Source: a virus (Duplodnaviria > Heunggongvirae > Uroviricota > Caudoviricetes). From it: a stretch of DNA of 64,000 nt. Of this stretch, positions 3,888 to 59,254 are shown piece after piece. Location: IMG/VR virus record IMGVR_UViG_3300045988_158394. One strand, given 5' to 3'. How positions within the stretch are numbered: the first letter of the stretch is position 1; every line of letters begins with the position of its first letter. A model generated the notes under the pieces. That model made no database searches and was not told the DNA's origin. It worked only from the letters and a program-made list of their open reading frames with translations. Made by a program: the position numbers and the translations under genes.

Positions 3888-4052
3888 TCGCCTCAATGAA
3901 TCGTGATTTATAGATCGATTTAGCTGTTAGCCGCGACAGGCGCGGCGGCAAGTATGGCGGGGTAGTGACTCCTTCCCCCTCATGACGCCGAGTTGCCAGG
4001 TTGACCATACGCCTAAGTGGCAACACCGAAGTGCGTTACGAGCTTCCAGTTT

Positions 4053-4078
4053 GCCCATCTTCGGGTGGGCGTTTTTTT
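4053..4078 (+). terminator. Rho-independent terminator-like hairpin in operon leader
   Basis: gcccatc-ttcg-ggtgggc stem-loop followed by a run of 7 T. Confidence 0.5.
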
Positions 4079-4543
4079 CAGGGTTTTCGTCATGGTTAGC
4101 GACTTTGCGGCGTTTTAGAAACTGACCATTAAAGTAAATGCAAACGATGATCTGATGATGGTAGCGGCCTAAGAAGCCAGACGCCACGGGGTATGAGTCG
4201 TCCCCCGTCAAAAAATCGACCGCAGAGTGTCCCCGTCTGTGTATTAGGGAACGGGGAGGCACAACAGGTAAGGGCGCTGGTGTGATTAACCAGATGAACG
4301 AGAAGGGGCCATCTGTTGGTCAGCGTCCTTTCCTGTTGCGTCTTCTTTTCAGCGTAACAGCGGTGCTTAACAGCACTTTGGGTACAGTTCCACGAATTTA
4401 CGGGTATATCCCGTCATGCTGAAAGCGCTAATCACGCTGGAAGCCAGGGTTATGCATCCCCTGTTACCGAATTGCAGCCAGGGCGCGGTGCGCCGAAAAG
4501 CATACGGAGGTGGAAGCCCTCGCCGGAGACGTACCCGGCAAGT

Positions 4544-4619
4544 GATGGTGTAGCTCAGCGGTTAGAGCGGTTGACTGTTAATCAACGGGTCGATGGTTCA
4601 AATCCATCCACCATCGCCA
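4544..4619 (+). tRNA. trnA: tRNA-Asn (anticodon GTT)
   Basis: Canonical cloverleaf read by eye: acceptor gatggtg/caccatc, D-arm gctcagcggttagagc, anticodon loop CTGTTAA, T-loop TTCAAAT, 3' CCA encoded. Confidence 0.85.
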
Positions 4620-4621
4620 AT

Positions 4622-4697
4622 GCCGGTTTAGCTCAGTTGGTAGAGCGCCTGCCTTGTAAGCAGGATGTCAGCGGTTCGAGTCCGTTAATCGGCACCA
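4622..4697 (+). tRNA. trnT: tRNA-Thr (anticodon TGT)
   Basis: Acceptor gccggtt/aatcggc, D-arm gctcagttggtagagc, anticodon loop CTTGTAA, T-loop TTCGAGT, CCA encoded; 2 bp after tRNA-Asn. Confidence 0.85.
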
Positions 4698-5118
4698 GCA
4701 CAACAGGTAAGGGTATTTTGCGACGTCGGAGATCGCCGAGCTTGGCAGAGGGTTCGAATCCCTACGAAGTACCCTTACCGTTGTGATGAAGTGCAGCTCT
4801 TAGAAGCAACCAGAAGATAAGCATCTGGCTTCACAACATAAACCGCAGGAACGACCAATAAACGGTAGTCCGTATGGAGAACACCCCGTTGAGGAAGAGG
4901 CCTGGCCGGAACCGTAACCGGCACTACAACGTTGAGAACATTGGCGTAACGGGGTCATATCCCAATCTATGAATAAATGTTGCGTTGCCGCGTGACAACC
5001 AGTGTTCTCAACATTGTGGTGAATGCACAGGCTGATGTGCCGCAACTACAGTAGTGCGCGCTTTGCGGGGCTTGCTACAACCCTGTGTCGGAGTTCAGCA
5101 CCGACCACCACAATCACT

Positions 5119-5205: not shown

Positions 5206-5468
5206 GCGCAACGTTAAGAGTATTTGGCTAATTAAGCGAATGCCGGAAGCAGAACCGGATCAACAAATGCGTACAGGCGTCATCGCCGCCCAGCCAGCCA
5301 AGTGCTCTTACCATTGCGGTGAATGCGGCTAAGCGCACGCGGGGAAATGGTTATATCAGTCCATTCATTTCTCCTTGTTTCCCCGTCCACGGTGGATAAC
5401 CAGCCAAAGGACACCGGGAGGCACCCGGCACCGCAACCTTATTTCCCAACCAGTAATGAGGTTAATAA

Positions 5469-5894
5469 ATGCTCGGCATTCTCAAAAAGAAATTCCGCAA
5501 AGCGGCTGGCGGAGTCAAGAAGATGGAAAACCGTGATGCGGTGGAAGCGACTGTCTGGGGCGCATATTCCATTGCATACTCTGACGGCACCTGCGATGCG
5601 AAAGAAATTGCAGTATTGGAAAAAACCATTGCAGCACTTCCTGCCTTTGCGCCGTTCTCCGGTGAAATTGCCCAGATGAGCGCCAATATTCGCGCTCAAT
5701 ATGAAGCCTCGCCGCGCCGAGCGAATGCCCAGGCTTTACGTGAACTGGCTGACGTGTCTGGAACTAATGATGCGGTAGATGTTCTGTGCCTATGCATTGA
5801 TATTGCTGACCAGGATGGCATTGGGGCAGAAGAGCAGGAGCAATTGAAGAAAATTGCCCAGGCTCTTCAATTGCCACTGGAACAGTATATCTGA
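5469..5894 (+). CDS. tciA: TerB-like (tellurite-resistance family) protein
   Basis: 141 aa; TerB-like repeats (DGTCDAKEIAVLEK, DQDGIGAEEQEQLKKIA); sits at the P1 tciA position after the tRNA pair. Confidence 0.65.
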   Translation: MLGILKKKFRKAAGGVKKMENRDAVEATVWGAYSIAYSDGTCDAKEIAVLEKTIAALPAFAPFSGEIAQMSANIRAQYEASPRRANAQALRELADVSGTNDAVDVLCLCIDIADQDGIGAEEQEQLKKIAQALQLPLEQYI

Positions 5895-6058
5895 TGGTTA
5901 TAAAAGCACGTCTAATTCTGGCTTTGGTTTTTCTCGTGCTATCTGTGCTGGTGGATTTCACCAGCACAATCCTGTCGGTTTTATCCGACGGGGCGTTGGT
6001 AGCAGTAGCTGTAACATTGGTATGGCCGATATTTAAACCAGCCTCGAAGGATCAGTGA
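5894..6058 (+). CDS. tciB: Small membrane protein (54 aa), translationally coupled to tciA
   Basis: ATG overlaps the tciA stop (ctgATGg); MVIKARLILALVFLVLSVLVDFTSTILSVLSDGALVAVAVTLVWPIFKPASKDQ; below the ORF-track size cutoff. Confidence 0.45.
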   Translation: MVIKARLILALVFLVLSVLVDFTSTILSVLSDGALVAVAVTLVWPIFKPASKDQ

Positions 6059-6165
6059 TGAGCTTCTGGGATTTTGCAGATAAGTATCCAATTGTTCTCA
6101 TTATCATTGTTGCCATAGTTGTAGGCGGTATTGTTAGCGCCATTGAAGCACTTAGGAAACAGTAA
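6058..6165 (+). CDS. tciC: Small membrane protein (35 aa), translationally coupled
   Basis: ATG overlaps the previous stop (gTGATGa); MSFWDFADKYPIVLIIIVAIVVGGIVSAIEALRKQ; stop abuts the following tRNA. Confidence 0.45.
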   Translation: MSFWDFADKYPIVLIIIVAIVVGGIVSAIEALRKQ

Positions 6166-6168
6166 TCC

Positions 6169-6244
6169 GGCCCTTTAGCTCAGTGGTTAGAGCTGGCGAC
6201 TCATAATCGCACGGTCACCGGTTCAAGTCCGGTAGGGGCCACCA
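6169..6244 (+). tRNA. trnI: tRNA-Ile2-like (anticodon CAT, lysidine type)
   Basis: Near-identical in my recollection to E. coli ileX (GGCCCCTTAGCTCAGTGGTTAGAGC...GACTCATAATCGC...GGTTCAAGTCC...GGGGCCACCA); anticodon loop CTCATAA. Confidence 0.85.
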
Positions 6245-6529
6245 TATTTGGTTGTAACACGGCGTCTGGCACATGCGTCGTTAGCGGTCTGGTGACGTTA
6301 AAGGGGTTACCTTTTCCCCTAGCTCAGGCAACAAACCAGGTAGCCGGAATGTGCAAGTCACCGTTGGAGGGATAGCGGATACAGGGACTCACCATCCTGG
6401 CGATTCGGTGTGACAGTCGGGAAGAGTCCGGCGCATTAATCCTGATTTTCTGGTGATGACTCATATCGTTAGGAGTGATTTGAGTATGCCGATTATATCT
6501 GACATTCAGCACGCCTGGGTGGAGTGCTA

Positions 6530-7894
6530 ATGTCTGCATCCCCTCTTGAATCCATGCCAAATTCCCTTAGTGCAGAACAAGCTGTACTTGGTGGCTTAAT
6601 GCTTGATAACTGCCGCTGGGATGAAGTTGCAGATCGTATAGTTGCTGATGATTTTTATACCAGTGCTCATCGTGAAATTTTCGGTGAGATGGAGAGGTTA
6701 TTAAGTCATGGCAAACCGATTGATTTGATAACACTTGCTGAAGCACTTGAACAGAACGGTAAATTAGAACGCGCCGGTGGTTTTGCGTACCTTGCGGAGA
6801 TGTCAAAGAACACGCCCAGCGCGGCAAATATTTGTGCTTATGCGGATATCGTTCGTGAACGCGCGGTTGTTCGTGAAATGATTTCCGTCGCAAATGAAAT
6901 AGCCGAAGCTGGATATGCGCAGGATGGCAGGGGCAGCAATGAATTGCTGGATATGGCCGAGCGCCGCGTTTTTGAAATAGCTGAAAAACGACAAAAGAGC
7001 GGTAGTGGTCCAAAAGATATCGCCAGCATTCTCGATGCAACGGTATCTCGCATAGAAGAGTTGTTTCAGCGACCGCATGATGGTGTAACGGGGCTTGATA
7101 CCGGATTTACCGATCTCAATAAGAAGACGGCAGGACTTCAGGCGTCCGATCTCATTATTGTCGCCGCCCGCCCATCGATGGGGAAGACTACGTTTGCGAT
7201 GAATCTCGTCGAAAATGCCGCAGTCCGTAACGATAAGCCCGTATTGGTTTTTAGCCTTGAGATGCCGAGCCACCAGCTGATGATGCGCTCACTGGCTTCT
7301 CTTGCACGCGTTGATCAGACTCGTATTCGGACAGGGCAACTTAACGACGAGGATTGGGCGCGGGTTTCTGGCGCAATGGGGATTCTGTTGGACAAGCAGA
7401 ATATTTTTATTGATGACTCAAGCGCCCTGACACCTACAGAGCTTCGTTCCCGCGCTCGTCGTGTTTATAAAGAAAATGGTGGTTTGAGCATGATTATGAT
7501 CGACTACCTGCAACTTATGCGCGTCCCCGAGCTGCAAGATAACCGAACGCTGGAAATTGCCGAGATTTCTCGCTCACTGAAGGCTTTGGCGAAGGAATTA
7601 CAAGTACCGGTGGTGGCATTGTCACAACTTAATCGATCGCTTGAACAGCGTGCGGACAAACGACCGGTAAATTCAGATTTACGTGAATCAGGAGCAATTG
7701 AGCAGGACGCAGACCTGATCATGTTTCTGTATCGCGACGAAGTTTATCACCCGGATAGCGAAATGAAGGGCATTGCCGAGGTGATTATCGGTAAGCAACG
7801 AAATGGCCCAATTGGCACGGTGAGATTGGCTTTTAACGGCCAATACTCACGGTTTGATAACTATGCTGGTGCTGACTGGCAAGAGGATTATTAA
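6530..7894 (+). CDS. ban: DnaB-family replicative helicase (Ban)
   Basis: DnaB N-terminal domain, Walker A ARPSMGKTTFAMN, Walker B MIMIDYLQLM, arginine finger region; probable ATG at 6530 inside ORF 6524..7894. Confidence 0.9.
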   Translation: MSASPLESMPNSLSAEQAVLGGLMLDNCRWDEVADRIVADDFYTSAHREIFGEMERLLSHGKPIDLITLAEALEQNGKLERAGGFAYLAEMSKNTPSAANICAYADIVRERAVVREMISVANEIAEAGYAQDGRGSNELLDMAERRVFEIAEKRQKSGSGPKDIASILDATVSRIEELFQRPHDGVTGLDTGFTDLNKKTAGLQASDLIIVAARPSMGKTTFAMNLVENAAVRNDKPVLVFSLEMPSHQLMMRSLASLARVDQTRIRTGQLNDEDWARVSGAMGILLDKQNIFIDDSSALTPTELRSRARRVYKENGGLSMIMIDYLQLMRVPELQDNRTLEIAEISRSLKALAKELQVPVVALSQLNRSLEQRADKRPVNSDLRESGAIEQDADLIMFLYRDEVYHPDSEMKGIAEVIIGKQRNGPIGTVRLAFNGQYSRFDNYAGADWQEDY

Positions 7895-31231: not shown

Positions 31232-32425
31232 GTGACCTGGGACGATCACAAAAAGAATTTTGCTCGCCTGGCGCGAGATGGTGGTTACACCATCGCACAG
31301 TATGCCGCCGAGTTTAATCTTAACCCTAATACCGCACGTCGTTATCTCCGTGCCTTCAAAGAAGACACCAGGACTGCGGACAGCCGCAAGCCAAATAAGC
31401 CAGTCAGGAAGCCACTAAAAAGCATGATCATTGATCACTCTAATGATCAACATGCAGGTGATCATATTGCGGCTGAAATAGCGGAAAAACAGAGAGTTAA
31501 TGCCGTTGTCAGTGCCGCAGTCGAGAATGCGAAGCGCCAAAATAAGCGCATAAATGATCGTTCAGATGATCATGACGTGATCACCCGCGCCCACCGGACC
31601 TTACGTGATCGCCTGGAACGCGACACCCTGGATGATGATGGTGAACGCTTTGAATTCGAAGCTGGCGATTACCTGATAGATAACGTTGAAGCGCGGAAGG
31701 CCGCGCGCGCTATGTTGCGTCGGTCCGGGGCCGATGTTCTGGAAACCACTCTTCTTGAAAAGTCTCTTTCTCATCTCCTTATGCTGGAGAACGCCAGGGA
31801 TACGTGTATTCGCCTGGTGCAGGAAATGCGCGATCAGCAAAAGGACGATGATGAAGGTACTCCGCCTGAATACCGTATCGCGAGCATGCTAAACAGCTGT
31901 TCCGCGCAGATAAGCAGCCTGATCAACACCATTTACAGCATCCGGAATAACTATCGAAAAGAAAGCCGGGAGGCGGAAAAGCACGCTTTGTCTATGGGGC
32001 AAGCTGGCATTGTTAAGCTGGCATACGAACGAAAGCGTGAAAATAACTGGTCAGTGCTGGAAGCAGCTGAATTCATCGAGGCGCATGGCGGGAAAGTGCC
32101 GCCCCTGATGCTGGAGCAAATCAAAGCCGATCTGCGTGCTCCGAAGACCAATACCGATGATGAGGAAAGGCAAACAGCCGTCGGTGGCCCTTCTCTTGAA
32201 GATCTGGACAAAGTTGCGCGAGAACGGGCCGCCAACCGCCGCGCCGATGCCGCATTGTGGATTGAGCAGCGTAGGGAAGAAATCGCCGATATCGTTGATA
32301 CAGGCGGTTATGGAGATGTTGATACTGAAGGTGTATCAAACGACCCATGGCTGGAACAAGACCTGGACGAAGACGAGGAGGAAGACGAAGAAGTTACCCG
32401 CAAGCTATACGGGGATGATGATTAA
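31232..32425 (+). CDS. pacA: Terminase small/pac-recognition subunit PacA
   Basis: 397 aa (the P1 PacA size); contains the pac site; acidic C-terminus; GTG start. Confidence 0.9.
31425..31583. other. pac packaging site (4 + 3 TGATCA/G hexamer elements)
   Basis: Four TGATCA at about 31425, 31432, 31444, 31459 and three TGATCG/A at about 31555, 31567, 31578, each containing a Dam GATC site. Confidence 0.8.
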
Positions 32426-33909
32426 TGGCCAGAAGTTGCGTAACGGATCCACGTTGGCGCGAGCTGGTGGCGCTATATCGTTATGACTGGATTGCTGCCG
32501 CTGATGTTTTGTTCGGCAAAACACCTACCTGGCAGCAGGATCTGATTATTGAGTCTGTGCAGGAACAGGGTAGCAAGACATCTGTTTCGTCTGGTCACGG
32601 TACCGGGAAATCAGACATGACTTCTATCATGATCATGTTGTTCATAATCATGTATCCCGGTGCCCGCGCCATTATCGTTGCGAACAAAATTCAGCAGGTA
32701 ATGACCGGTATATTCAAGTACATCAAGATAAACTGGGCTACTGCCACCAGCCGTTTCCCATGGCTTGCTGATTATTTTGTTCTGACAGAAACCGCTTTCT
32801 ATGAGGTTACTGGTAAAGGTGTATGGACTGTAGTACCGAAGGGCTTTCGTCTGGGAAGTGAAGAAGCTCTCGCCGGTGAACACGCAGATCATCTTCTGTA
32901 TATTATCGATGAAGCCTCCGGTGTCAGTGATAGAGCTTTCGGTATCATCACCGGTGCTCTTACCGGACAGGATAACCGCATCTTATTGCTGTCACAGCCT
33001 ACACGCCCAAGCGGCTATTTCTACGATACTCACCATAAACTGGCCAAGCGTCCTGGTAACCCTGATGGCGTTTATACGGCGATCACGCTTAACAGTGAGG
33101 AATCACCGCTGGTAACGCCAGCATTTATCAAAATGAAGCTGGCGGAGTACGGCGGTCGCGATAACCCTATGTACATGATTAAGGTACGCGGCCTATTCCC
33201 TAAATCACAGGATGGCTTCCTTCTTGGACGTGATGAGGTTGAACGTGCAACGCGGCGGAAAGTCAAGATTGCAAAAGGATGGGGCTGGCTTGCATGTGTG
33301 GACGTTGCTGGTGGTACGGGACGGGATAAGTCCGTTATCAATATCATGATGGTGTCCGGCCAGAGAAATAAACGCCGTGTAATCAACTATCGAATGCTGG
33401 AATACACAGACGTTACAGAAACGCAGCTTGCCGCCAAAATTTTCGCAGAATGTAATCCTGAGCGATTCCCAAATATTACCATAGCGATAGACGGCGATGG
33501 CCTGGGTAAAGCAACGGCGGATCTGATGTACGAGTATTATGGTATTACCGTACAGCGTATACGCTGGGGTAAAAAGATGCATAGCCGTGAAGATAAGAGC
33601 CTGTACTTTGATAAACGTGCTTATGCCAACGTTCAAGCCGCAGAGGCCGTAAAATCTGGTCGTATGAGACTGGATAAGGGTAATGAAACTATTGAGGAAG
33701 CGTCGAAAATCCCTGTAGGGATTAACTCCGCAGGTCAATGGAAGGTGATGAGTAAGGAGGATATGAAGAAAAAACTCAACCTGCACTCACCAGACCATTG
33801 GGATACATATTGTTTCGCTATGCTGGCGGATTATGTTCCCCAGGACGAAGTGCTTAGCGTCGAAGACGAAGCGCAGGTTGATGAAGCTCTGGCATGGCTT
33901 AATGAATGA
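32425..33909 (+). CDS. pacB: Terminase large subunit PacB
   Basis: 494 aa; Walker [10 protein letters not shown], Walker [11 protein letters not shown]; start overlaps pacA stop (taATGg). Confidence 0.9.
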
Positions 33910-34268: not shown

Positions 34269-34490
34269 GTGGCTACTATCCCTACCCCTGCTCATCCTGA
34301 ATTTATCTGGCGCTTTTACTCCTGCCAAAAACGTCACTATCACTTCGTTATTGCACCGACAGAAGATGAGGCACGTTCTCAGCTTCCGGATGCTCCCTGT
34401 ATTTTCTCTGCCCGCTTTTCTACCGATTCGCGCAATTCTCTCAGTTACTGGTGCCTCCCTGTTAACGCTTCTGCTCAGGAGGGACTATGA
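34269..34490 (+). CDS. icd-like small ORF translationally coupled to the antirepressor gene
   Basis: 73 codons, GTG start 5 nt after AGGAGG; stop overlaps the ant-like ATG (ATGA). Confidence 0.35.
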   Translation: MATIPTPAHPEFIWRFYSCQKRHYHFVIAPTEDEARSQLPDAPCIFSARFSTDSRNSLSYWCLPVNASAQEGL

Positions 34491-35599
34491 GAACGTCATT
34501 AGTCACCCGTGAAGAGATGATCGAGGCAATTGAACAGCACACTGCCTGTATCAGTACCAGGGATATACCGGGCGTTATTGCCAACTACTTCATGATCACC
34601 AAACAACTTTACCGGAGAAAGGACAAACACGCGGTTCACCGCATTCTGCTAACCGATATCCGTGAATACCTGCTCGAACAGGGTCATCTGAATTACGCAA
34701 CCGTCGCAGCCGAAGCACGCAAGGAGGCACACAGAATGAAAGCAACTAACGTTAAATCAGAAAAAATTTATGCACCTTCAGTTCAGGAATCGGAACTGGT
34801 GGTTGTTCAGAATCAGCCGGATGAAATTCCCGTTCTGGAATGGCAGGGAGTACGTGTCGTGACAACCGAAACTCTTGCTAGAGGGTATGGGGTCGATGAA
34901 GCCAATATTCGCAACAATTTGTCTCGCAACCTTGACCGCTTTGAAGCAGGTAAGCATTACTTTCTTCTAACTGCTTTAAAATTAAGAGAATTTAAGAACA
35001 GAGTAACCGGAAGTTACTCTGTTGGTAAGAACGCCAGAAGCCTTACACTCTGGACAGAGCGCGGCGCTGCACGCATGTCTAAGATCGTGGACACAAATGA
35101 AGCATGGGCATTCTTTGAAAAACTGGAAGACAGCTACTTCCGGCAAAAAGAACAGCAACCGGTTGCAATCCCCCAGACGCTTCCAGAAGCTCTGCGCCTG
35201 GCTGCCGAACTGGCTGAACAAAAGCAGCTTCTGGAACAGAAAGCCCACCAGCTAAATCAGCAGCTGGTGGCCGCCGCTCCTAAAGTCGATTTTGCCGACC
35301 GGGTATCAGTAGCTAAAGGGATCCTGATTGGGAATTTTGCAAAGGTTGTTGGACTTAAGCAAAACGCGCTGTTTGCCTGGTTACGGGAGAACGGCATCCT
35401 GATAGCGTCCGGTGGACGTAAAAATGTGCCGTTCCAGCAGTACATCAATGCGGGGTATTTCACGGTGAAAGAAGTGGTGCTGGATGATGAAGATGGCTAC
35501 CAGATACGGTTGACGCCTCAATTAACGGGTAAAGGCCAGCAGTGGTTGACGCGTAAACTGCTCGATGCTGGCTTGTTAAAACCGGTGGCGGCTGAATAA
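34487..35599 (+). CDS. Antirepressor-like protein (ORF6N/KilAC-type N-domain + Ant C-terminal domain)
   Basis: 370 aa; N-domain WQGVRVVTTETLARGYGVDEANIRNNLSRNLDRFEAGKHYF; C-domain VAKGILIGNFAKVVGLKQNALFAWLRENGIL...QQYINAGYF. Confidence 0.55.
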   Translation: MRTSLVTREEMIEAIEQHTACISTRDIPGVIANYFMITKQLYRRKDKHAVHRILLTDIREYLLEQGHLNYATVAAEARKEAHRMKATNVKSEKIYAPSVQESELVVVQNQPDEIPVLEWQGVRVVTTETLARGYGVDEANIRNNLSRNLDRFEAGKHYFLLTALKLREFKNRVTGSYSVGKNARSLTLWTERGAARMSKIVDTNEAWAFFEKLEDSYFRQKEQQPVAIPQTLPEALRLAAELAEQKQLLEQKAHQLNQQLVAAAPKVDFADRVSVAKGILIGNFAKVVGLKQNALFAWLRENGILIASGGRKNVPFQQYINAGYFTVKEVVLDDEDGYQIRLTPQLTGKGQQWLTRKLLDAGLLKPVAAE

Positions 35600-39161: not shown

Positions 39162-39178
39162 ATTGCTCTAATTGATTG
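39162..39178 (+). promoter_or_regulatory. C1 operator upstream of ref
   Basis: ATTGCTCTAATTGATTG. Confidence 0.5.
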
Positions 39179-39245
39179 TTATAATTGAGCCGCAGTTTTT
39201 GTCAACTACGAAGACGTTGCCATTACTTCACTCCTTGACATCATT

Positions 39246-39271
39246 GGCGGCCATTAGGCCGCCTTTTTTTT
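39246..39271 (+). terminator. Rho-independent terminator
   Basis: ggcggcc-atta-ggccgcc followed by TTTTTTTT, just before the ref ATG. Confidence 0.65.
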
Positions 39272-39276
39272 GCCAT

Positions 39277-39837
39277 ATGAAAACAATCGAACAAAAAATT
39301 GAACAGCGCCGCGAGTGGCAGAAGGCAGCCAGAGAACGAGCGATCGCTCGGCAACGGGAAAAGTTGGCTGACCCCGCCTGGCGAGAATCGCAATATCAGA
39401 AAATGCGGGATACTATCGACCGCCGTATCGCTAAACAGAAAGAGCGCCCACCAGCCAGCAAAACGCGGAAAAGCGCGGTAAAAATAAAATCTCGTGGCTT
39501 GAAGGGGAGAACACCAACGGCGGAGGAACGGCGCATCGCCAATGCTCTTGGCGCTCTCCCCTGCATTGCCTGCTACATGCATGGAGTAATATCTGAAGAG
39601 GTGTCTCTGCACCATATCTCCGGTCGTACCGCGCCGGGTTGTCACAAAAAGCAATTGCCCCTTTGCAGATGGCACCACCAGCATGCAGCACCGGCTGAAG
39701 TAAGAGAAAAATACCCTTGGCTGGTCCCTGTTCATGCCGATGGTGTGGTTGGAGGCAAGAAAGAATTCACCTTGCTTAACAAGTCAGAGATGGAGTTGCT
39801 GGCTGACGCCTATGAGATGGCAAACATCATGCACTAA
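39277..39837 (+). CDS. ref: Ref (recombination enhancement function) HNH endonuclease
   Basis: 186 aa from MKTIEQKIEQ (ATG inside ORF 39172..39837); HNH-type Cys/His motif region CIACYMHG...SLHHISGR...CHKKQLPLCRWHHQ; basic N-terminus. Confidence 0.85.
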   Translation: MKTIEQKIEQRREWQKAARERAIARQREKLADPAWRESQYQKMRDTIDRRIAKQKERPPASKTRKSAVKIKSRGLKGRTPTAEERRIANALGALPCIACYMHGVISEEVSLHHISGRTAPGCHKKQLPLCRWHHQHAAPAEVREKYPWLVPVHADGVVGGKKEFTLLNKSEMELLADAYEMANIMH

Positions 39838-40722: not shown

Positions 40723-42027
40723 ATGAGCGAGTATATAGAAATTGCCTATGCAGCAGCTACACATAGGCTGTGCTTTCTTACAGGCACTGGATTTTCAAAG
40801 GCTGTTTCTGATGATAAAGCCCCAAGTTGGCAATCTTTATTGGAGCAACTGTGCGGTTTATTGAAGGATGGTGACTCACTCAAAGAGGAATTATTTCCTG
40901 ATGGAAAAGCAAAAGACCTTAGCCTTGAAGAGGCTGCTCAGGTTATTGCACTAAAATTTATACTTTCGGGGAAAAATATTTACCAGGAGATTGAGAAAAT
41001 CATAGCCTCAATCGAACTTGATCCATCAATTGAATATATTCAAGACTTTTTCAAAGAAAACACATTTAAAGTAATTACGACAAATTATGACAAGTTAGCA
41101 GAAAAACTGGCTGGAGAGAATCGAACGTGTACAATCACCCCCGGCCTGCCAATTCCAAAATATAATTGTGAGGTTAAAGTCTACCATGTTCACGGCTCTA
41201 TAGACTCCCCATCAGATATGGTTGTTACTAGCGAGGATTATTTCAGATTTATAAATGGTAATTCTTACTTTTCAAATAAACTAAGCACAGTTCTACATGA
41301 AAACACTATTGTTATTCTTGGCTATTCTCTAAGTGACGCGAACCTCAAGGCGATTATAAATGAATATAAGGTATTTTCACGGGACAACGTAATGTCCTCC
41401 AATATTTTCCTTATTTCCCGAGGGAAACTATTGCAACCTATTAAAGATTACTATTTTTCCTGCTTTGGGATTAGGGTTATAGATAAAACAGAGGTGTCTG
41501 ATTTCTTTAGAAAACTTAACAAGAAAATTCCAGAAGCAAAAAAAATAAAAGACAAATTGAGGCACTCAATCAAATCGGTAATAAAAAACGGAAGAGAGTA
41601 TAAAATAGAGTTCTTGAAGTTAGAGGATTCTTTTTATCATATCATTTCCTCCATTTCATCATCTGGATATAGCTGGAATGATGAAAAGGTATTAAATGTT
41701 TTTTGTGATATAATAGATAAAAAAATAGATCTTACTAAAGAGTCTGGCGCATGGGAGCAGTATGAACACCTGGCAAAATGGCTTATTTATTTCGGTAGTT
41801 TATTTGAAGTAAAAGGAACCAACTTTGAGAAAAAATACATACATGCGGTTGAACACTCAATGACTTATATGAATAAACCTTACGAAACAGGCTACTCATG
41901 GCGAGCATATCTAGCCTGGAAAACAAAATGGCCTTCACTGACAGCATCTAACCGCTCTCTTATTAAGAGTAAGATGGAAGAAATCCCGCTACAACAGATT
42001 CACGATATTATATCTAAGTTTATATAG
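40723..42027 (+). CDS. SIR2-like (NAD-binding / putative NADase) defence-type protein with C-terminal domain of unknown function
   Basis: 434 aa; glycine loop LCFLTGTGFSKA, VITTNYDKLAEKL and YHVHGSI signatures of SIR2-family domains; conspicuously AT-rich relative to flanks; SD ggag 8 nt upstream. Confidence 0.7.
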   Translation: MSEYIEIAYAAATHRLCFLTGTGFSKAVSDDKAPSWQSLLEQLCGLLKDGDSLKEELFPDGKAKDLSLEEAAQVIALKFILSGKNIYQEIEKIIASIELDPSIEYIQDFFKENTFKVITTNYDKLAEKLAGENRTCTITPGLPIPKYNCEVKVYHVHGSIDSPSDMVVTSEDYFRFINGNSYFSNKLSTVLHENTIVILGYSLSDANLKAIINEYKVFSRDNVMSSNIFLISRGKLLQPIKDYYFSCFGIRVIDKTEVSDFFRKLNKKIPEAKKIKDKLRHSIKSVIKNGREYKIEFLKLEDSFYHIISSISSSGYSWNDEKVLNVFCDIIDKKIDLTKESGAWEQYEHLAKWLIYFGSLFEVKGTNFEKKYIHAVEHSMTYMNKPYETGYSWRAYLAWKTKWPSLTASNRSLIKSKMEEIPLQQIHDIISKFI

Positions 42028-52643: not shown

Positions 52644-53201
52644 TTATTCATTGACCAGCCCCGTCAGGCAAAGCTGGCGTTCTTTTTCACGGCGAATCTT
52701 TAACCCGGGCAGGGGGACGCCGTTACTGTTCACAAAATCAGGGAGATGGTTACACATATTCACCCATTCCCCTTTCTGCGCCCACTTGTGGATGGACGTT
52801 TCGACTCGCATGCCTCGCGCTTTGCTGTAGTAGGTCCGTAAACTATTGCATCCCATATTGAATGCCGCGCTTGTCATTGCGCTGAAGGCATTATCGGGCA
52901 TGTCTTTGCCCCGGAAGTGCTGGTTAATACAGCGTTCAGCGATCAGGATATTCTTTTCCCAATCAGCGGCGATTTGTTGGTCGTTTTTTCGCACGCCTGG
53001 CGTTACCCCGTGTGTATTACCAATCCCGTCAGTCCATACACCCGCCGGGCACATGTATGGATCACGTCGGCAACCTTCAGCGTTTCCGATAAGCTCAAGC
53101 CCCGCCTGGTTGGTTCGCACATTGCCATTACCCATCACGATGGTAATCATCACCGCGATAGCGCAAATTGCACCGCCTCCTGCGGCTGTTTTTCCCTTCA
53201 T
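52644..53201 (-). CDS. lyz: SAR endolysin (T4 lysozyme-family)
   Basis: 185 aa; Gly/Ala-rich SAR N-terminus GGGAICAIAVMITIVMG followed by a lysozyme domain (GLELIGNAEGCRRDPY). Confidence 0.9.
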   Translation of the reverse strand: MKGKTAAGGGAICAIAVMITIVMGNGNVRTNQAGLELIGNAEGCRRDPYMCPAGVWTDGIGNTHGVTPGVRKNDQQIAADWEKNILIAERCINQHFRGKDMPDNAFSAMTSAAFNMGCNSLRTYYSKARGMRVETSIHKWAQKGEWVNMCNHLPDFVNSNGVPLPGLKIRREKERQLCLTGLVNE

Positions 53202-53333
53202 AAAGACCTCATAAGCGAATTTTTACGCTCCAGGACAAACACCCATTCACAGCCAATACCGACTGACTCGATCCCTTTAGAAGACACAGGATAATGCAAA
53301 TCACTTGTTAGCTACGTTTCAAAGATATACATT

Positions 53334-53350
53334 ATTGCTCTAATTAATTT
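53334..53350 (+). promoter_or_regulatory. C1 operator upstream of ssb
   Basis: ATTGCTCTAATTAATTT. Confidence 0.5.
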
Positions 53351-53369
53351 ATTTTATTAGGTAAGATAA

Positions 53370-53858
53370 GTGGCACAACGCGGTGTAAACAAAGTCATCC
53401 TGATTGGTACCCTGGGGCAAGACCCGGAGATCAGGTATATACCAAATGGCGGCGCGGTCGGAAGACTCAGCATCGCAACGAATGAATCATGGCGCGACAA
53501 GCAAACGGGCCAACAGAAAGAGCAAACAGAATGGCATAAAGTCGTTTTGTTCGGAAAACTTGCTGAAATTGCGAGTGAATATTTACGAAAAGGTTCTCAG
53601 GTCTACATCGAAGGGAAACTTAAAACCCGTAAGTGGACAGATGACGCCGGTGTAGAACGTTACACGACGGAAATTATCGTCAGCCAGGGCGGCACCATGC
53701 AAATGATCGGCGCTCGCCGTGACGATTCACAGTCCTCAAATGGCTGGGGGCAATCAAACCAACCTCAAAACCACCAGCAATACAGTGGTGGCGGTAAACC
53801 TCAGAGCAACGCCAATAACGAACCTCCAATGGACTTTGACGACGATATTCCGTTTTGA
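53370..53858 (+). CDS. ssb: Single-stranded DNA-binding protein
   Basis: [25 protein letters not shown]-fold N-terminus, Gly/Gln-rich linker and acidic tail DFDDDIPF. Confidence 0.92.
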
Positions 53859-54055
53859 ATGTGTAAAAAACGACTGAAAGAAAAGCGGTGGTCCAGACGC
53901 CGACAAAAGCACGAACTCGCTCAAAAACGCCAAAGTTGGCAATGGCACGCGCTTTTAACGAATAGAACACCCCGAGATATTGCTTTCGCTGGTGGGAAAA
54001 CATTCCTAACCAACCTGAAGGCGCAATACATCAGTTTTTAAGCAGAGAAAAGACT

Positions 54056-54850
54056 ATGACAGCACAAAATACTAAAACCATTCAATACCGCCTACGTAAT
54101 GGCCAGAGTGTCGAAGTGACCATCAATAATGATGGAGTGCCAGGCGAAAAGGTTTCTATCTCTGATCTGGCTATCGAAAAAACCATCATGTGCCACCTTG
54201 GCTTTACTGAAGAAGTGAGCAAAAAGCATGGTGTAGCTATCTGGCGAACAATGGATACTGGCATGCGCAGATTCATTACCGCTCGTACCCCAGGTATGAC
54301 CATGATGGACCTCATGCAGATTGCACCGCTGTTTGAGTGTGAACCTTTGGATGTATTCAGCAATCCAGCTATCTGCCAGCAGTTATATGGTGAGATGAAA
54401 CTCGCTGTTACCCCCATTGTGCTGCATGAAGGATCGCTTGCTGGCGTATGGAAAGTAGAGCGAATTTCAAGCTACATGCCCTTCCACATCCATGTCAACG
54501 GCGTAATCGCAGGTGAAAATCAACCTGTTTCAGTTACAAAGTCAGACCTCAAGCGCGCAATTCTTGAAGCAAGTTGTCGAGTTATCGGCCTTGGCAAACA
54601 GTCTTATGTTTCCTTCCCGGCTGGCCCTGAAGGCCCGGCAGAAATTCTGATTATGGATGCCGATCTGCTCTGGCAAATACAGTTTCTGATTGGCAAAAGC
54701 ATCATCCGCGCTGAAGAACTCGATCAGTACATTACCTGCACGATGACAGATGAAGTCAAAAGTGTGGCTATAGCCAAGGCCCGGAACCTGTGTCGTGCTG
54801 CATTAACAGAACTGCAAGAAAACACCACGGAAGAGGTGGAAAGTGACTAA
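54056..54850 (+). CDS. Hypothetical protein, translationally coupled to the PacB paralog
   Basis: 264 aa; stop overlaps the next start by 8 nt. Confidence 0.45.
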   Translation: MTAQNTKTIQYRLRNGQSVEVTINNDGVPGEKVSISDLAIEKTIMCHLGFTEEVSKKHGVAIWRTMDTGMRRFITARTPGMTMMDLMQIAPLFECEPLDVFSNPAICQQLYGEMKLAVTPIVLHEGSLAGVWKVERISSYMPFHIHVNGVIAGENQPVSVTKSDLKRAILEASCRVIGLGKQSYVSFPAGPEGPAEILIMDADLLWQIQFLIGKSIIRAEELDQYITCTMTDEVKSVAIAKARNLCRAALTELQENTTEEVESD

Positions 54851-55937
54851 TCGTATACAGAATGAACCTGCCTGGTTAGCACTGATAGAACAGTATAAAG
54901 ACAATTGGGAACTGGCAGCGAAAGAGTTGCTTGATATTGAGTTAACACCTCATCAAGCAAAAATTATTAACGCGATAAAGAACACCGGAGCCAAAGTCAC
55001 TGCCACCACACCACATGGTATTGGGGAAACCTCTATTGTGGCAGTGATTAGCATCCTGCAAACAATACTGTATTCGTGTTCCCGTACAGTGGTTGTTTCT
55101 CCTGCTATTAACGATAGTCGAAAAACAATAATTGACTATATGTTCCGTTATTGGGAGCAAGTTACCCAAAAACACCCTTTTCTTGGCAATCATTTCAGAA
55201 TGCACCCTGACAAAGGGTTGGTGCATATCAGTGAAATATGGGGATGCGTCTATATAACCTATTGTCTGAATAACGAAGTGTCTCTGGCTGGTTTTACTGG
55301 ACCGCACGATCTTTTCATCGTTATTAACTCGGCGGAAATCAGCGATCGCGCTCATGCAGTGATAACTGGCAATTTAACCAATTATGACTCGCGCCTGCTG
55401 TTGCTGTCGAAACCATCGGAACGCGAGAAAGGGTACTTTTATGATTCGCATCACCGGTTGGCCCATAGTAAAAACAATCCTGCTGGTTTTTTCACGGCGA
55501 TAACTCTAAACACAGAGGATTCACCTCTCGTTTCTGAAGCATATCTTGAATTCAAAGCCAAAGAGTTTGGTGGGCGCAATAGCGATGAATATAGCCGATT
55601 GATCTTGGGGAAATTTCCCGGGATTCGGGAGTTGATGGAAAAGTCATCTGTTCCCCGTAATATGCACTTCACAATGACTGACGGTAGTAAATGGGTAGTG
55701 CCTACGATCGTGATCGCCAAACACCATGCGAAACATCACGCTCAAAAACACAACTCCAGCACATTAGACTGGCTGAAGGCCTATACAATACCGTTATTCT
55801 CGGCAAACCATAACGCTATAGCTGAATGGGCTAAACAAATCCCCTGGCAGGATGTGGCTGAAGAGGCATTTGTCGAAAAACCACCAAGAGATTTGCACGA
55901 GCACTGTTGGCTGACATCAGAAAAGAGCTTCTCGTGA
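54843..55937 (+). CDS. Terminase large-subunit (PacB) paralog with degenerate ATPase motifs
   Basis: 364 aa, alignable by eye to PacB over about 250 residues (LLLLSKPSEREKGYFYDSHHRLA vs [22 protein letters not shown]); Walker A TTPHGIGETS, Walker B LFIVINSAEI; lacks the PacB C-terminal region. Confidence 0.6.
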   Translation: MTNRIQNEPAWLALIEQYKDNWELAAKELLDIELTPHQAKIINAIKNTGAKVTATTPHGIGETSIVAVISILQTILYSCSRTVVVSPAINDSRKTIIDYMFRYWEQVTQKHPFLGNHFRMHPDKGLVHISEIWGCVYITYCLNNEVSLAGFTGPHDLFIVINSAEISDRAHAVITGNLTNYDSRLLLLSKPSEREKGYFYDSHHRLAHSKNNPAGFFTAITLNTEDSPLVSEAYLEFKAKEFGGRNSDEYSRLILGKFPGIRELMEKSSVPRNMHFTMTDGSKWVVPTIVIAKHHAKHHAQKHNSSTLDWLKAYTIPLFSANHNAIAEWAKQIPWQDVAEEAFVEKPPRDLHEHCWLTSEKSFS

Positions 55938-55942
55938 GGTAA

Positions 55943-55970
55943 AAATCCCGCCGATTGGCGGGATTTCTTT
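55943..55970. terminator. Bidirectional terminator
   Basis: aaatcccgcc-gatt-ggcgggattt 10-bp stem. Confidence 0.65.
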
Positions 55971-56277
55971 AATATATGATCTGGTCTATATGATCACCAA
56001 AATCATCGTCGTCGTCCTCATCGCCACCATCTACAACAGGCCAATCAACAAACCAGCCAGCATAAAGATGCAGCGTTCGGAGAACATCACTTGCGGGAGC
56101 ATCAAGGGTGTTAACGAATCCCATATAGCTATTGGGATTTGCTCCAGCTATGGCTTCAGCGATCATGTCCTCGGTAATGTCACCGGAGATAATGCTTAAA
56201 CGCCCGGAAACTTCTTCATTATCATCAAATTCGATAATGGCATCTCCGCCTAATGGCGCTGCGATTTTAATCTGCAT
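55969..56277 (-). CDS. Acidic hypothetical protein, last gene of the dar operon
   Basis: 102 aa with C-terminal DGGDEDDDDDFGDH; start overlaps the ddrB stop. Confidence 0.4.
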   Translation of the reverse strand: MQIKIAAPLGGDAIIEFDDNEEVSGRLSIISGDITEDMIAEAIAGANPNSYMGFVNTLDAPASDVLRTLHLYAGWFVDWPVVDGGDEDDDDDFGDHIDQIIY

Positions 56278-59254
56278 TATTTAGCTCCTTTGCCACACCT
56301 AATAACAGTTCCAGCAATCCGTCACCATTCATCAGTGATGCGGCAGCGGCCTCTTTGTCATGATACAACTGAAGAGCCATAGAGAATACTTCCGTTGCTG
56401 ACGTTTTGGAAATGGTCGGTGATTTCTGCCGAATTTTCCCGGAGTTACTCACTGAGACTGGCGGGTATACCTTCGCCATATAAATATTACTCAATCGAGA
56501 TCTGAAGCACCATTCAGGCTTGCCACGCCCACCGATATTAACGAAAGATGGCTTATCTCCTTCAACATTGGCCTTCAGGAATGACCGGGCTTTCTCTAAC
56601 AAACCAGGGTTACTGTACTCAAGATGATGACCCAGCTCGTGCCACAGTGCACTTGCATTTTCATCGTTCAAATTGACAGCAACAACACCATTTAGATTTG
56701 CATATGCCCTTCCCTGGTGGTGAACCACTTTTGATAAGGTCGATATTTTCCCGCCGGTCAGGCGATAAATATCAGCAAGTTCCTTGCGCAGGTCTATCCC
56801 ACCATTCTGTCCAGCGCGGGCTTCTTCCACTTCTTCCGTGATAAAAGAGTCGGCCCACTCAAGAGCTTTTTCTTCAGATACGGATGAGTTTGCGATCGCA
56901 CTGTTCATGGCAGATAACACTTTCTCGTGGACCGAACCCATACTTCGCTGATTCATTTGCCAGCGTGTCTGCGGGTTATATGAGAATCGCTTAAGTAGTT
57001 GGTCAAGCTGCTCAAGTTCTTCTTCACTGACATACTTTTTAGCCTCACCAATAATGCCAGGGAGAATATTGCCGTTAGGATTAAACGCTCGCGAAAGGAA
57101 GAGTTTCAGCGCCCCCATGCCCTCCGATGCTTCAATATCACCAATAACCCGGTTAACAATGGCCGCACTCTTCGGATTAGCATCCGCCAACGCTCTGGCT
57201 ACAATTTGCAGGGACGATACGACCTCACGCTGCATATCCGTCCTGATCTCATCAATAAACTCTGGCGTTATGCCGTGCTCTTTAAGGATATCCCTGCCTT
57301 CCGCCGTTACCCCATCAATATCACCGACATGTTTATTAACCCGACTTTGCAATGCCTTAAATGCCTTCAGAATTCCACGGGCATCATCCGCTTTACTAAC
57401 GGCCTTCCTGAATGCTGGCAAGAAGTCTGAGTTAACCTCATTTTGTTGATCGGCCCACTGAATGGAGGCTTCTTTCATCTCGTCCAGAGTCAGATCACCC
57501 AACGCGGTATGGTCTGTGAATATGAGCGACAACCTCTGAACCATTTCTGCCAATGGTGATGCCGAATGCGCCGCGCTAAGGAATGCTTTCACCCTGGTTG
57601 GGCGAATGGAAAACCAGTCAATAGCTGGTGGCATATCTCCGTTTTTTATCGCCTGCGCTATCTCGTCAAAGCCATCGCGCCCAAGGGAGGATGCGTGATT
57701 TAACAAGCCGCGAAGTAACGAATTGCTGATACCGAATAATCGGCACCATTTTTTCACGTCGGCAACAGGCATTCGAACAAAATGCGCAAGCACTTGTACA
57801 AGCTGTTCATCCTGGGGATCTGTACGGGAAAGCAGCCTGATCAGATGAATAATGTCTTTGATGCCGGATGCCCGATGTAATAGCAAACTGGTATATGGAG
57901 CAACACCGTTGTAACTACCGCCGGAAACGGACTCGAAAAGACCGCCGGATATCCCTTGCATGCCTTCGTTTTCCAGTTCCTGAGACACCTGGCGAAGGAT
58001 ATCCTGTAACGACACATCACCACCGCCAAACATATCCCCCAGCGCCTGGCCCTGGTGCTGTAACTCATCATTGATACGTTGAGCCATCAATTTAAAGGCG
58101 GTGGCCATACGCTTCGCGCTACGGTTATTCGCGACGATGAACAACGCGAGAGCTTTCACTTCCGGGGCTGTTTCGCTGAACATATCCCCCTGAGCAATAA
58201 CATCGGTAATATGTTGGCCTGACTCCTTCGATTGCCTTACCAGGTCTACCGCATCTTTCAATGCCGCCAGCGCCTTTTTATCGAGACTATCCGCTGTCTC
58301 AATACCATCAACAATAGTTGTCACAGCCTGCTTGTGCGCTTCACCTGATAAAGCCTGCATCTGGACAAAATCATTGGCTGCCGCATTAAGCGCCGTCAGA
58401 ACATTACGCATATCTGGATCAGGTTCTTCTGCAACCATCCTTACTAGGCGCGCATCCTTATATGCCTTGGCAAAGATCGCGTTTTGTATACGGTCTACAA
58501 GTTGCCGTGTTGGTCGCCCATCTTCCGTTACAAGGCCAGCAGCCTGTGTGGCACCAACTTGCGTCATGAATCCGCGGATAAACGCGTCATTACTGCGGCT
58601 AAGCAGATCTCCGCTTTCTGACGGGTTAAACAGCGCCATCATCGCCGAAGTTATGTTGTCGGCATCAACAAAAGCCTTTTCACTGGCTGCCATTTCCTGA
58701 AGATCAGAAATATTTGAGTCCTTGGCAAACTGAACGCGGTCAACCTTAGTTAACCGGCGGCGCACCAGTACCGGGGCCGTCATTGATTCAACCTTTTCAG
58801 GTCGTATGCCGAATTCGGTCGCATGTTCAATCAGATACTCCCGATACCGATCCGCATTGCCGTCCTGATAGGCTTTAATGATCCCCATGGTCCGTCCATT
58901 ACCCGACTCAACGGCATTGTCCTCACCAATTATCGGCGCGCCATGGCTGGATAAACCGGAATCGGTAAGCTGAGCAGGTCGCAAATCTTTGGATATCTGG
59001 TTAACCTGAAGAAGGCTGGATGCGCGGGTCCGGTCGCGCGGCTGAAGTTCCTGGGGATAGTCCGGATTAATTTTCCCGTCCAGAGTATTGGATACCAAAA
59101 GAGCCGAGGCATCGACGATATCAAACGCTGTTTTTACCTCGTCTCCCTTCGCTGTCACCACATACGAAACCCGCCCATAATCGGGCAGGTTCTTTAGCAG
59201 CTCGATCAGCGTTTCTATGCTGGTGGCCATAACCACCTGATCGCTTAAGCTCAT
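56267..59254 (-). CDS. ddrB: DdrB-like Dar-operon protein
   Basis: 995 aa, directly downstream of ddrA/darA on the minus strand; name by synteny. Confidence 0.55.
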   Translation of the reverse strand: MSLSDQVVMATSIETLIELLKNLPDYGRVSYVVTAKGDEVKTAFDIVDASALLVSNTLDGKINPDYPQELQPRDRTRASSLLQVNQISKDLRPAQLTDSGLSSHGAPIIGEDNAVESGNGRTMGIIKAYQDGNADRYREYLIEHATEFGIRPEKVESMTAPVLVRRRLTKVDRVQFAKDSNISDLQEMAASEKAFVDADNITSAMMALFNPSESGDLLSRSNDAFIRGFMTQVGATQAAGLVTEDGRPTRQLVDRIQNAIFAKAYKDARLVRMVAEEPDPDMRNVLTALNAAANDFVQMQALSGEAHKQAVTTIVDGIETADSLDKKALAALKDAVDLVRQSKESGQHITDVIAQGDMFSETAPEVKALALFIVANNRSAKRMATAFKLMAQRINDELQHQGQALGDMFGGGDVSLQDILRQVSQELENEGMQGISGGLFESVSGGSYNGVAPYTSLLLHRASGIKDIIHLIRLLSRTDPQDEQLVQVLAHFVRMPVADVKKWCRLFGISNSLLRGLLNHASSLGRDGFDEIAQAIKNGDMPPAIDWFSIRPTRVKAFLSAAHSASPLAEMVQRLSLIFTDHTALGDLTLDEMKEASIQWADQQNEVNSDFLPAFRKAVSKADDARGILKAFKALQSRVNKHVGDIDGVTAEGRDILKEHGITPEFIDEIRTDMQREVVSSLQIVARALADANPKSAAIVNRVIGDIEASEGMGALKLFLSRAFNPNGNILPGIIGEAKKYVSEEELEQLDQLLKRFSYNPQTRWQMNQRSMGSVHEKVLSAMNSAIANSSVSEEKALEWADSFITEEVEEARAGQNGGIDLRKELADIYRLTGGKISTLSKVVHHQGRAYANLNGVVAVNLNDENASALWHELGHHLEYSNPGLLEKARSFLKANVEGDKPSFVNIGGRGKPEWCFRSRLSNIYMAKVYPPVSVSNSGKIRQKSPTISKTSATEVFSMALQLYHDKEAAAASLMNGDGLLELLLGVAKELNNAD

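Follow-up and report, generated by a model that had tools for sequence, protein, structure and literature searches.

A PacB-like pseudo-enzyme and its conserved IsaA partner in P1-like phage-plasmids

Few phage proteins are as conserved as the large terminases, which are also a main target of pattern-recognition immunity in bacteria. Here we describe a pseudo-enzyme offshoot of this family encoded in a 64,000-nucleotide stretch of viral DNA (IMG/VR record IMGVR_UViG_3300045988_158394; hereafter, the window), which comes from a P1-like phage-plasmid of the genus Punavirus. The gene, a 364-codon open reading frame (ORF) with a GTG start (54843-55937, + strand), encodes a paralog of the packaging protein PacB and directly follows isaA, whose product is its conserved partner. 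Alignments and structure prediction give good support for a PacB-type fold that is predicted to be unable to hydrolyse ATP and that lacks the nuclease domain, and the gene is, on well-supported sequence grounds, an accessory, non-essential gene under purifying selection and no pseudogene. A literature search found no description of a PacB paralog, of a dead-PacB clade or of a terminase decoy, and the family is newly described here. Existing database records label the gene as 'hypothetical protein' or, misleadingly, as 'terminase large subunit'.

A terminase ATPase fold without its catalytic motifs

PacB itself is encoded 20.9 kb upstream of the paralog (32425-33909, + strand), after pacA (31232-32425), and is catalytically intact, with its GTGKS and IIDEAS motifs and its nuclease domain. 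BLASTP aligned the 364-residue protein with this PacB over 276 residues at 34% identity (94/276; E = 1e-54), and the two are assigned to phrog_5902 and, with weaker matches, to the terminase family phrog_2. A profile of the dead paralogs returned only a marginal terminase match among PDB sequences (E = 0.14), and a fold search was therefore needed to confirm the terminase fold. The AlphaFold2 model of the paralog, built from 17 sequences, has a predicted local distance difference test score (pLDDT) above 90 across residues 1-260. Its best Foldseek matches among solved structures were large terminases or their ATPase domains, from Sf6, P74-26, HK97, D6E and T4 (E = 2e-9 to 1e-6), and the viral structure library agrees. 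Residues 1-262 (54843-55628, + strand) thus form a predicted ASCE-type ATPase fold of the PacB large-terminase type from which the catalytic residues are missing. The paralogy to PacB, first proposed in a reading of the sequence without database searches (the sequence-only reading), is borne out by both the alignment and the fold match. Pfam, NCBIfam and PADLOC gave no match for the paralog, IsaA or IsaB.

Both Walker motifs of the paralog are degenerate. In the region of Walker A (55011-55031, + strand), PHGIGET takes the place of PacB GHGTGKS, the aligned stretches being TPHGIGET and SGHGTGKS, and the lysine is replaced by glutamate. In the region of Walker B (55311-55328, + strand), LFIVIN takes the place of LYIIDE, and alignment of DLFIVINSA with PacB LLYIIDEAS places isoleucine at the aspartate and asparagine at the glutamate. 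BLASTP, MAFFT and hmmalign concur on both sites, and the substitutions are not products of misalignment. The sequence-only reading had reported the same Walker A change (GHGTGKS to PHGIGETS) and had rightly noted the loss of the acidic pair from Walker B, although its register, VINSAE, was one residue off, as IIDEAS aligns with IVINSA.

Similarity to PacB ends at about residue 272, and BLASTP found none of significance past PacB residue ~274; PacB residues ~275-494, which form the RNase H-like nuclease domain, thus lack a counterpart. Conservation is strongest in the second half of the ATPase domain, where residues 157-262 are 45-57% identical and contain the motifs GYFYDSHH, SPLV and GGR. The two proteins share the PacB-type ATPase fold, the Q motif, the P-loop glycines, LAG, GYFYDSHH, SPLV and GGR...Y...G.F. 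By contrast, the features of a functional TerL or PacB are absent from the paralog: it lacks the Walker A lysine (G-x-G-K-S/T), the Walker B pair (hhhhDE) and the nuclease domain, and its gene lies outside the packaging operon. PacB is essential and its gene follows pacA, whereas the accessory paralog is encoded after ssb and isaA, in what is probably an early operon (PMC10695390).

The nuclease domain is replaced by a domain of ~95 residues (55644-55922, + strand; AlphaFold2 pLDDT 53-75). Residues ~268-360 match the C-terminus of phrog_17928, the stand-alone ~100-residue phage proteins P0112, P0136, P0144 and Cronobacter phage JK004 gp35, and the C-terminus of Xanthomonas phage CP2 ORF36, where the domain is fused to DUF1351. 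Fourteen positions are invariant in the alignment. No Pfam or PDB relative of the domain was found, the matches there being weak ones to DUF5076/3ic3 and DUF3150. The paralog therefore ends, as judged from these alignments, in a separate small domain that is well conserved and uncharacterised, and not in a stump. The earlier proposal that the C-terminal third of PacB is missing holds for the nuclease domain but not as a plain truncation. Stand-alone copies belong to replication modules, where the domain is flanked by DNA polymerase B and a RecA-like gene or, in phage JK004, comes after DnaB. The small domain was located at 55644-55922 of the window, L004:5010-5306, L005:2980-3300 and L176:5001-5303; the phages that have it alone in a replication module are unrelated and lytic.

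The isaA partner and a variable slot

On the + strand, the paralog is the last of three genes in the order ssb (53370-53858), isaA (54056-54850) and paralog; these are followed on the opposite strand by hxr (55969-56277), ddrB (56267-59254), darA and hdf, hxr being the last gene of the dar operon. This ORF order confirms the placement of the paralog and its partner between ssb and the dar operon that had been read from the sequence. Positions 53000-57000 align over their full length with 'Punavirus P1' MH422554 and with MH445380 at 98.3% identity and with vB_EcoM-813R1 at 97.6% identity, whereas the reference P1 genome (NC_005856) covers only 72% of this region. Comparison of the locus with related genomes found no insertion sequence (IS) element between ssb and hxr in the window, as had also been stated earlier.

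The 264-residue partner, which the sequence-only reading had described as a protein of unknown function without recognising it, is P1 IsaA (97% DNA identity to P1 isaA; phrog_2326, E = 8.5e-151). Indeed, homology between the window and reference P1 is unbroken at 97.4% identity from upstream of lyz to the isaA stop codon, and it restarts at the hxr stop codon. IsaA has no family beyond phrog_2326 and no recognisable fold; its AlphaFold2 model was poor and the fold search returned only noise. The isaA stop and the GTG start of the paralog overlap by 8 nt (GTGACTAA), with a Shine-Dalgarno-like GAGGTGG just upstream, an arrangement that agrees with the translational coupling proposed earlier. The annotated P1 isaA starts further upstream, 30 nt after ssb, and encodes 320 residues (L001:2389-3351). 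Homologues at 45-47% identity conserve the start of the 264-residue form; the annotated P1 protein is therefore probably over-extended, and the stretch upstream of the shorter start is probably spacer.

The ssb promoter region (53305-53369, + strand), including the C1 operator Ossb (53334-53350), is identical base for base to the annotated P1ssb, P2ssb and Ossb of P1. Between ssb and isaA, a simple scan of the + strand found nothing resembling a terminator. The same scan identified a strong GC-rich hairpin (55943-55966) right after the paralog stop codon, between the convergent paralog and hxr genes and common to both, which is likely a bidirectional terminator. Since the operator and promoters are those of P1 and no terminator-like site precedes isaA, we infer that ssb, isaA and the paralog are probably co-transcribed early and repressed by C1.

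Reference P1 carries a different filling at this position. From isaA to hxr it contains 94 bp, IS1, 133 bp and isaB, an order that agrees with the earlier statement that in P1 IS1 lies between isaA and isaB. The IS1 is flanked on both sides by a perfect 9-bp target duplication, TGCCCTCTG (L001:3437-3445 and L001:4214-4222), which marks it as a simple insertion, with no associated deletion, in the spacer between isaA and isaB. Neither blastn-short nor tblastx detected paralog remnants in P1 around IS1 and isaB. We considered whether IS1 had interrupted the paralog gene and rejected this idea as no such remnant is present; the idea that IsaB represents the C-terminal half of the paralog was likewise rejected on the result of these searches. 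IsaB belongs to an unrelated family, phrog_30162, and isaB is poorer in GC (36.5%) than the paralog (44%) or the window as a whole (48%).

Removal of IS1 from P1 would leave isaA-isaB-hxr and would therefore not restore the arrangement of the window. The paralog and isaB (with IS1) are, on these comparisons, alternative cassettes in one variable region: the ssb-hxr slot and the IsaA partner are the same in both, and the paralog stands in place of isaB and IS1 and is unrelated to IsaB. This region is a known variable one among P1-like plasmids, where isaA-IS1-isaB has been described as RD-2 (PMC6906374) and as region 2 (PMC9603915). CRISPR interference showed isaA and isaB to be nonessential; the paralog is not in the P1 gene list that was tested (PMC10695390).

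Distribution, selection and related lineages

Among PLSDB plasmid records, pacB matched 617 (558 with at least 80% of the gene covered), isaA 336 (329), the paralog 120 (119) and isaB 113 (25). At this coverage, 119 of the 558 pacB-bearing plasmids carry the paralog. It is also present at full length in 100 of 5,426 complete E. coli genomes, with all 101 copies full-length and 99 of them on plasmids, and all 18 P1-type viral contigs carry the 364-codon ORF intact. The 90%-identity protein cluster of the paralog has 851 members. Pairwise ratios of nonsynonymous to synonymous substitution rates (dN/dS) among P1-type orthologues, restricted to pairs with dS >0.03, were 0.15-0.33. These data contradict a view of the gene as a decaying, functionless pacB duplicate, for which the lost catalytic motifs, the lost nuclease domain and the dispensability of the gene might be cited. 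The ORF remains intact in viral contigs, plasmids and E. coli records, orthologues at 52% identity share its length, its non-catalytic motifs and its coupling to isaA, and, as described below, the dead clade is old and diverse. We consider decay extremely improbable.

An exhaustive search recovered 566 relatives of the paralog, compared with only 3 from a word-index homology search, and motifs were surveyed in the best 150 of the 566. Within these 150, full-length relatives (~500 residues) keep GTGKS, DEASG and the nuclease strand, and in a short set (P0004, P0006, P0008, P0009, P0010, P0013, P0014, P0042, P0043, P0061 and P0106, plus fragments) the Walker A lysine and the nuclease domain are missing throughout and the Walker B Asp-Glu pair is never intact. 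Most of these dead paralogs have 244-268 residues, P0004 and P0010 having 366 and 444, and they form about a dozen 50%-identity clusters. The window paralog has the same features, namely a PacB-type N-domain, loss of the motifs and nuclease, and a live PacB in the same genome. In a neighbour-joining tree of the N-domain, 10 of 11 dead sequences group in a single clade that excludes the live PacBs of their genomes, which suggests one old duplication; as the tree carries no support values, this inference is provisional. A scan of a genome collection placed the relatives on P1-like contigs, nearly all of them ~80-100-kb contigs of Enterobacterales with a few from other Gammaproteobacteria, and on one fragment from a metagenome-assembled genome labelled Bacillota; it gave no sign of a host-chromosomal version.

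The partnership with IsaA extends beyond P1-type genomes. In a second lineage (L024 and L026-L033), the paralog (52% identical) has retained the C-terminal domain. It is immediately preceded by an IsaA homologue (43-48% identical), whose stop codon overlaps the paralog start by 11 nt, and the module has a Shine-Dalgarno sequence of its own. The neighbourhood consists of a cre-like recombinase gene, a dUTPase-like gene, the module and then, on the opposite strand, a UmuD-like gene (humD); ssb, hxr and ddrB are all absent within 5 kb of the module. Because the adjacency of isaA and paralog recurs in a lineage that is ~50% diverged, it is probably the older state. To that extent, the suggestion that the window preserves an uninterrupted ancestral arrangement may stand, but the junctions of IS1 in P1, with a clean 9-bp duplication and no trace of the paralog, show that the window is not P1 minus IS1.

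Both lineages also have a Tad2-like gene at the same end of the cluster. In L024, L027, L030 and L031, the gene immediately before isaA is Tad2-like (PF11195, Thoeris anti-defence 2-like; E = 1e-20), and in SJ46, Ro157c2YLVW, L009, L011 and L020 a 225-residue Tad2-like gene lies exactly between ssb and isaA. In the window the ssb-isaA spacer (53859-54055, + strand) is empty, and its blastn breakpoints relative to SJ46 fall at the edges of the Tad2-like gene. As both lineages have a Tad2-like gene before isaA, a cluster of Tad2-like gene, isaA and dead pacB paralog appears to be ancestral and to have been trimmed in various ways in P1-type genomes; IsaA is found without the paralog in SJ46, P1, L094 and L057. 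The usual picture of the P1 'IS1 region' is corrected accordingly: isaA would belong to an older three-gene cluster, and the slot has several alternative fillings, isaB with IS1 being one. Tad2-like coordinates include L166:1390-2235, L167:1558-2235 and L024:3527-4213.

Other dead paralogs have different neighbours. In a third lineage (L089 and L091), a 263-residue dead paralog overlaps, at an ATGA, the stop codon of an orthologue of Ref, a RecA-dependent HNH nuclease, that is 49% identical to Ref of the window (39172-39837). In L089, the Ref orthologue is at 5327-6001 and the dead paralog at 5998-6789, with an IsaA-like gene 3 kb upstream. Partnerships between HNH endonucleases and terminases are known, for example that of HK97 gp74, and the third lineage likewise couples a nuclease-less PacB paralog to an HNH nuclease. 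The window differs from the gp74 type in that the partner is IsaA, with no HNH nuclease, and in that its paralog probably has no ATPase activity to assist. In L168, the dead paralog P0008 (5001-5795) directly follows a radical-SAM gene (4027-4983), and in L170 a dead paralog stands alone, near parM and pacAB. The L168 radical-SAM gene has a weak viperin-like PADLOC match (E = 3e-11), and DUF5417 and ParE-like genes lie upstream.

These contexts bear on the idea that the paralog is an accessory of early DNA replication or recombination, in which the terminase fold would be a scaffold for binding DNA or protein, held to replication proteins by the C-terminal domain. The position downstream of ssb in the window, the coupling to Ref in the third lineage and the placement of the second-lineage module among cre-like and dUTPase-like genes and humD are all in keeping with such a role, as are the occurrences of the C-terminal domain alone in replication modules and its fusion to DUF1351. 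This support is, however, genomic context, and most dead paralogs do not have the C-terminal domain. Terminase ATPase domains need ATP to grip DNA, and ATP binding has probably been lost here; most P1-like elements also dispense with the gene. We regard this role as distinctly unlikely.

The sequence-only reading had instead proposed that the paralog docks at the portal as an adaptor for packaging Dar proteins. The gene does adjoin the dar operon in P1-type genomes, and loss of the C-terminal half would not by itself preclude portal binding, given that in T4 the ATPase domain and not the nuclease domain contacts the portal. Reference P1 nevertheless lacks the gene, and in the window its strand is opposite to that of dar, as part of a separate, convergent operon that a terminator-like hairpin divides from hxr. 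Moreover, the second-lineage module has no hxr or ddrB homologue within ~5 kb, and other dead paralogs sit in unrelated contexts. The published route of Dar entry uses DarA, Hdf and an N-terminal capsid-targeting sequence of DarB: incorporation in P1 is stepwise and depends on Hdf and DarA, with no extra factor described, a 30-residue N-terminal signal of DarB is enough to package a reporter, and DarA-Hdf pairs are bound at the inner capsid surface (PMC9024508, PMC12810830). The P1 used in that work was, we infer, of the laboratory lineage that lacks the gene. The P1 genome, the DarA/Hdf route and the location of the second-lineage module away from dar together make the adaptor idea very improbable.

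Possible roles of the paralog

The reading we favor, tentatively and with low confidence, is that the paralog is a terminase mimic, an early, non-catalytic protein that acts by binding only, in conflict between phage and host or between phages. It would be made before the late, real PacB. Factors that recognise the ATPase fold of PacB would then be occupied or drawn away by a protein that supplies neither the activity nor the conformation they need. Candidate targets would be host sensors of large terminases (Avs1-3 and Upx) and the packaging-hijack or exclusion factors of rival elements, and IsaA might be a co-factor of the paralog or a separate counter-defence protein. We are led to a conflict role because a Tad2-like gene lies upstream of isaA in both lineages, the dar anti-restriction operon abuts the locus, the slot is variable and only 119 of 558 pacB-bearing plasmids carry the gene.

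Several immune sensors target the ATPase domain of large terminases. These enzymes are sensed by Avs1-3 and by Upx, and Upx requires neither catalysis nor any part of the terminase beyond the ATPase domain (PMC13601566). The same study describes T4 vs.8, a stand-alone terminase-ATPase paralog that is reported to activate EcAvs2 (PMC13601566). Like the window paralog, vs.8 is a second phage terminase copy limited to the ATPase domain and encoded apart from the packaging genes. As described there, vs.8 keeps its Walker A and B motifs (PMC13601566), whereas the window paralog has the ATPase-domain-only architecture and has lost both.

Several observations weigh against a mimic. Avs2 and Avs3 contact the terminase-bound ATP and active-site features, which are absent from the paralog, and one would expect a STAND sensor to be triggered, not blocked, by a protein bound to it (PMC13601566). 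No terminase decoy appears in the part consulted of a catalogue of 268 anti-defence proteins, and PADLOC returned no defence-system match for the paralog, IsaA, IsaB or Hxr at E<=1. Elsewhere, the dead paralog is coupled to the Ref HNH nuclease or follows a radical-SAM gene and does not accompany anti-defence genes. The mechanism rests on context and pseudo-enzyme logic, and co-transcription with ssb is itself deduced from the sequence. The broader proposal that dead PacB paralogs form an unrecognised class of counter-defence proteins, acting as early decoys or shields against Avs1-3 and Upx from an island shared with IsaA and a Tad2-like protein, is in our view rather unlikely.

The main rival to the mimic is a regulator of the PacA-PacB packaging enzyme (pacase), either the element's own or that of a co-resident P1-like element. 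A dead subunit that keeps the surfaces for binding PacA or a neighbouring PacB could titrate or cap them, and thereby delay or limit pac cleavage or poison the packaging motor of a competitor. A live PacA-PacB pair is present on every dead-paralog contig of sufficient length, with a live PacB on the same contig in five lineages, although such co-occurrence is expected for any paralog in a complete phage. The family is confined to PacB-type terminases of Enterobacterales phage-plasmids, residues 157-262 offer a plausible common interaction surface, several dead members retain an arginine aligned with that of PacB FRLG, and early synthesis would precede the late pacase. Laboratory P1, P7 and ~80% of P1-like plasmids, however, lack the gene and package normally, and the gene is far from pacAB, in cargo slots where its partners differ by lineage. 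Regulation of the pacase is thus a somewhat improbable explanation, and a sizeable probability remains for something other than a mimic, a pacase regulator or a replication accessory.

A conserved dead terminase family beside a Tad2-like gene and the dar operon points to a use of the fold outside packaging itself, possibly as a decoy, as a regulator of packaging or transduction, or as a poison of competitors. Nature already provides close relatives among P1-like elements that differ in having or lacking the paralog, which makes these uses readily testable.

Two further genes were noted elsewhere in the window. A 370-residue protein with ORF6N and ANT/KilAC antirepressor domains is encoded between pacB and c1 (34487-35599, + strand), a position at which laboratory P1 presumably has no gene. 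A 434-residue SIR2_2-domain protein (40723-42027, + strand; Pfam E = 1.6e-23) matches PADLOC PDC-S25 (E = 5e-24) and ThsA-like SIR2 (E = 7e-18). Its gene follows ref and a mat-like gene, in another variable slot that holds res-mod in laboratory P1, and is a candidate for a defence gene carried by the prophage.

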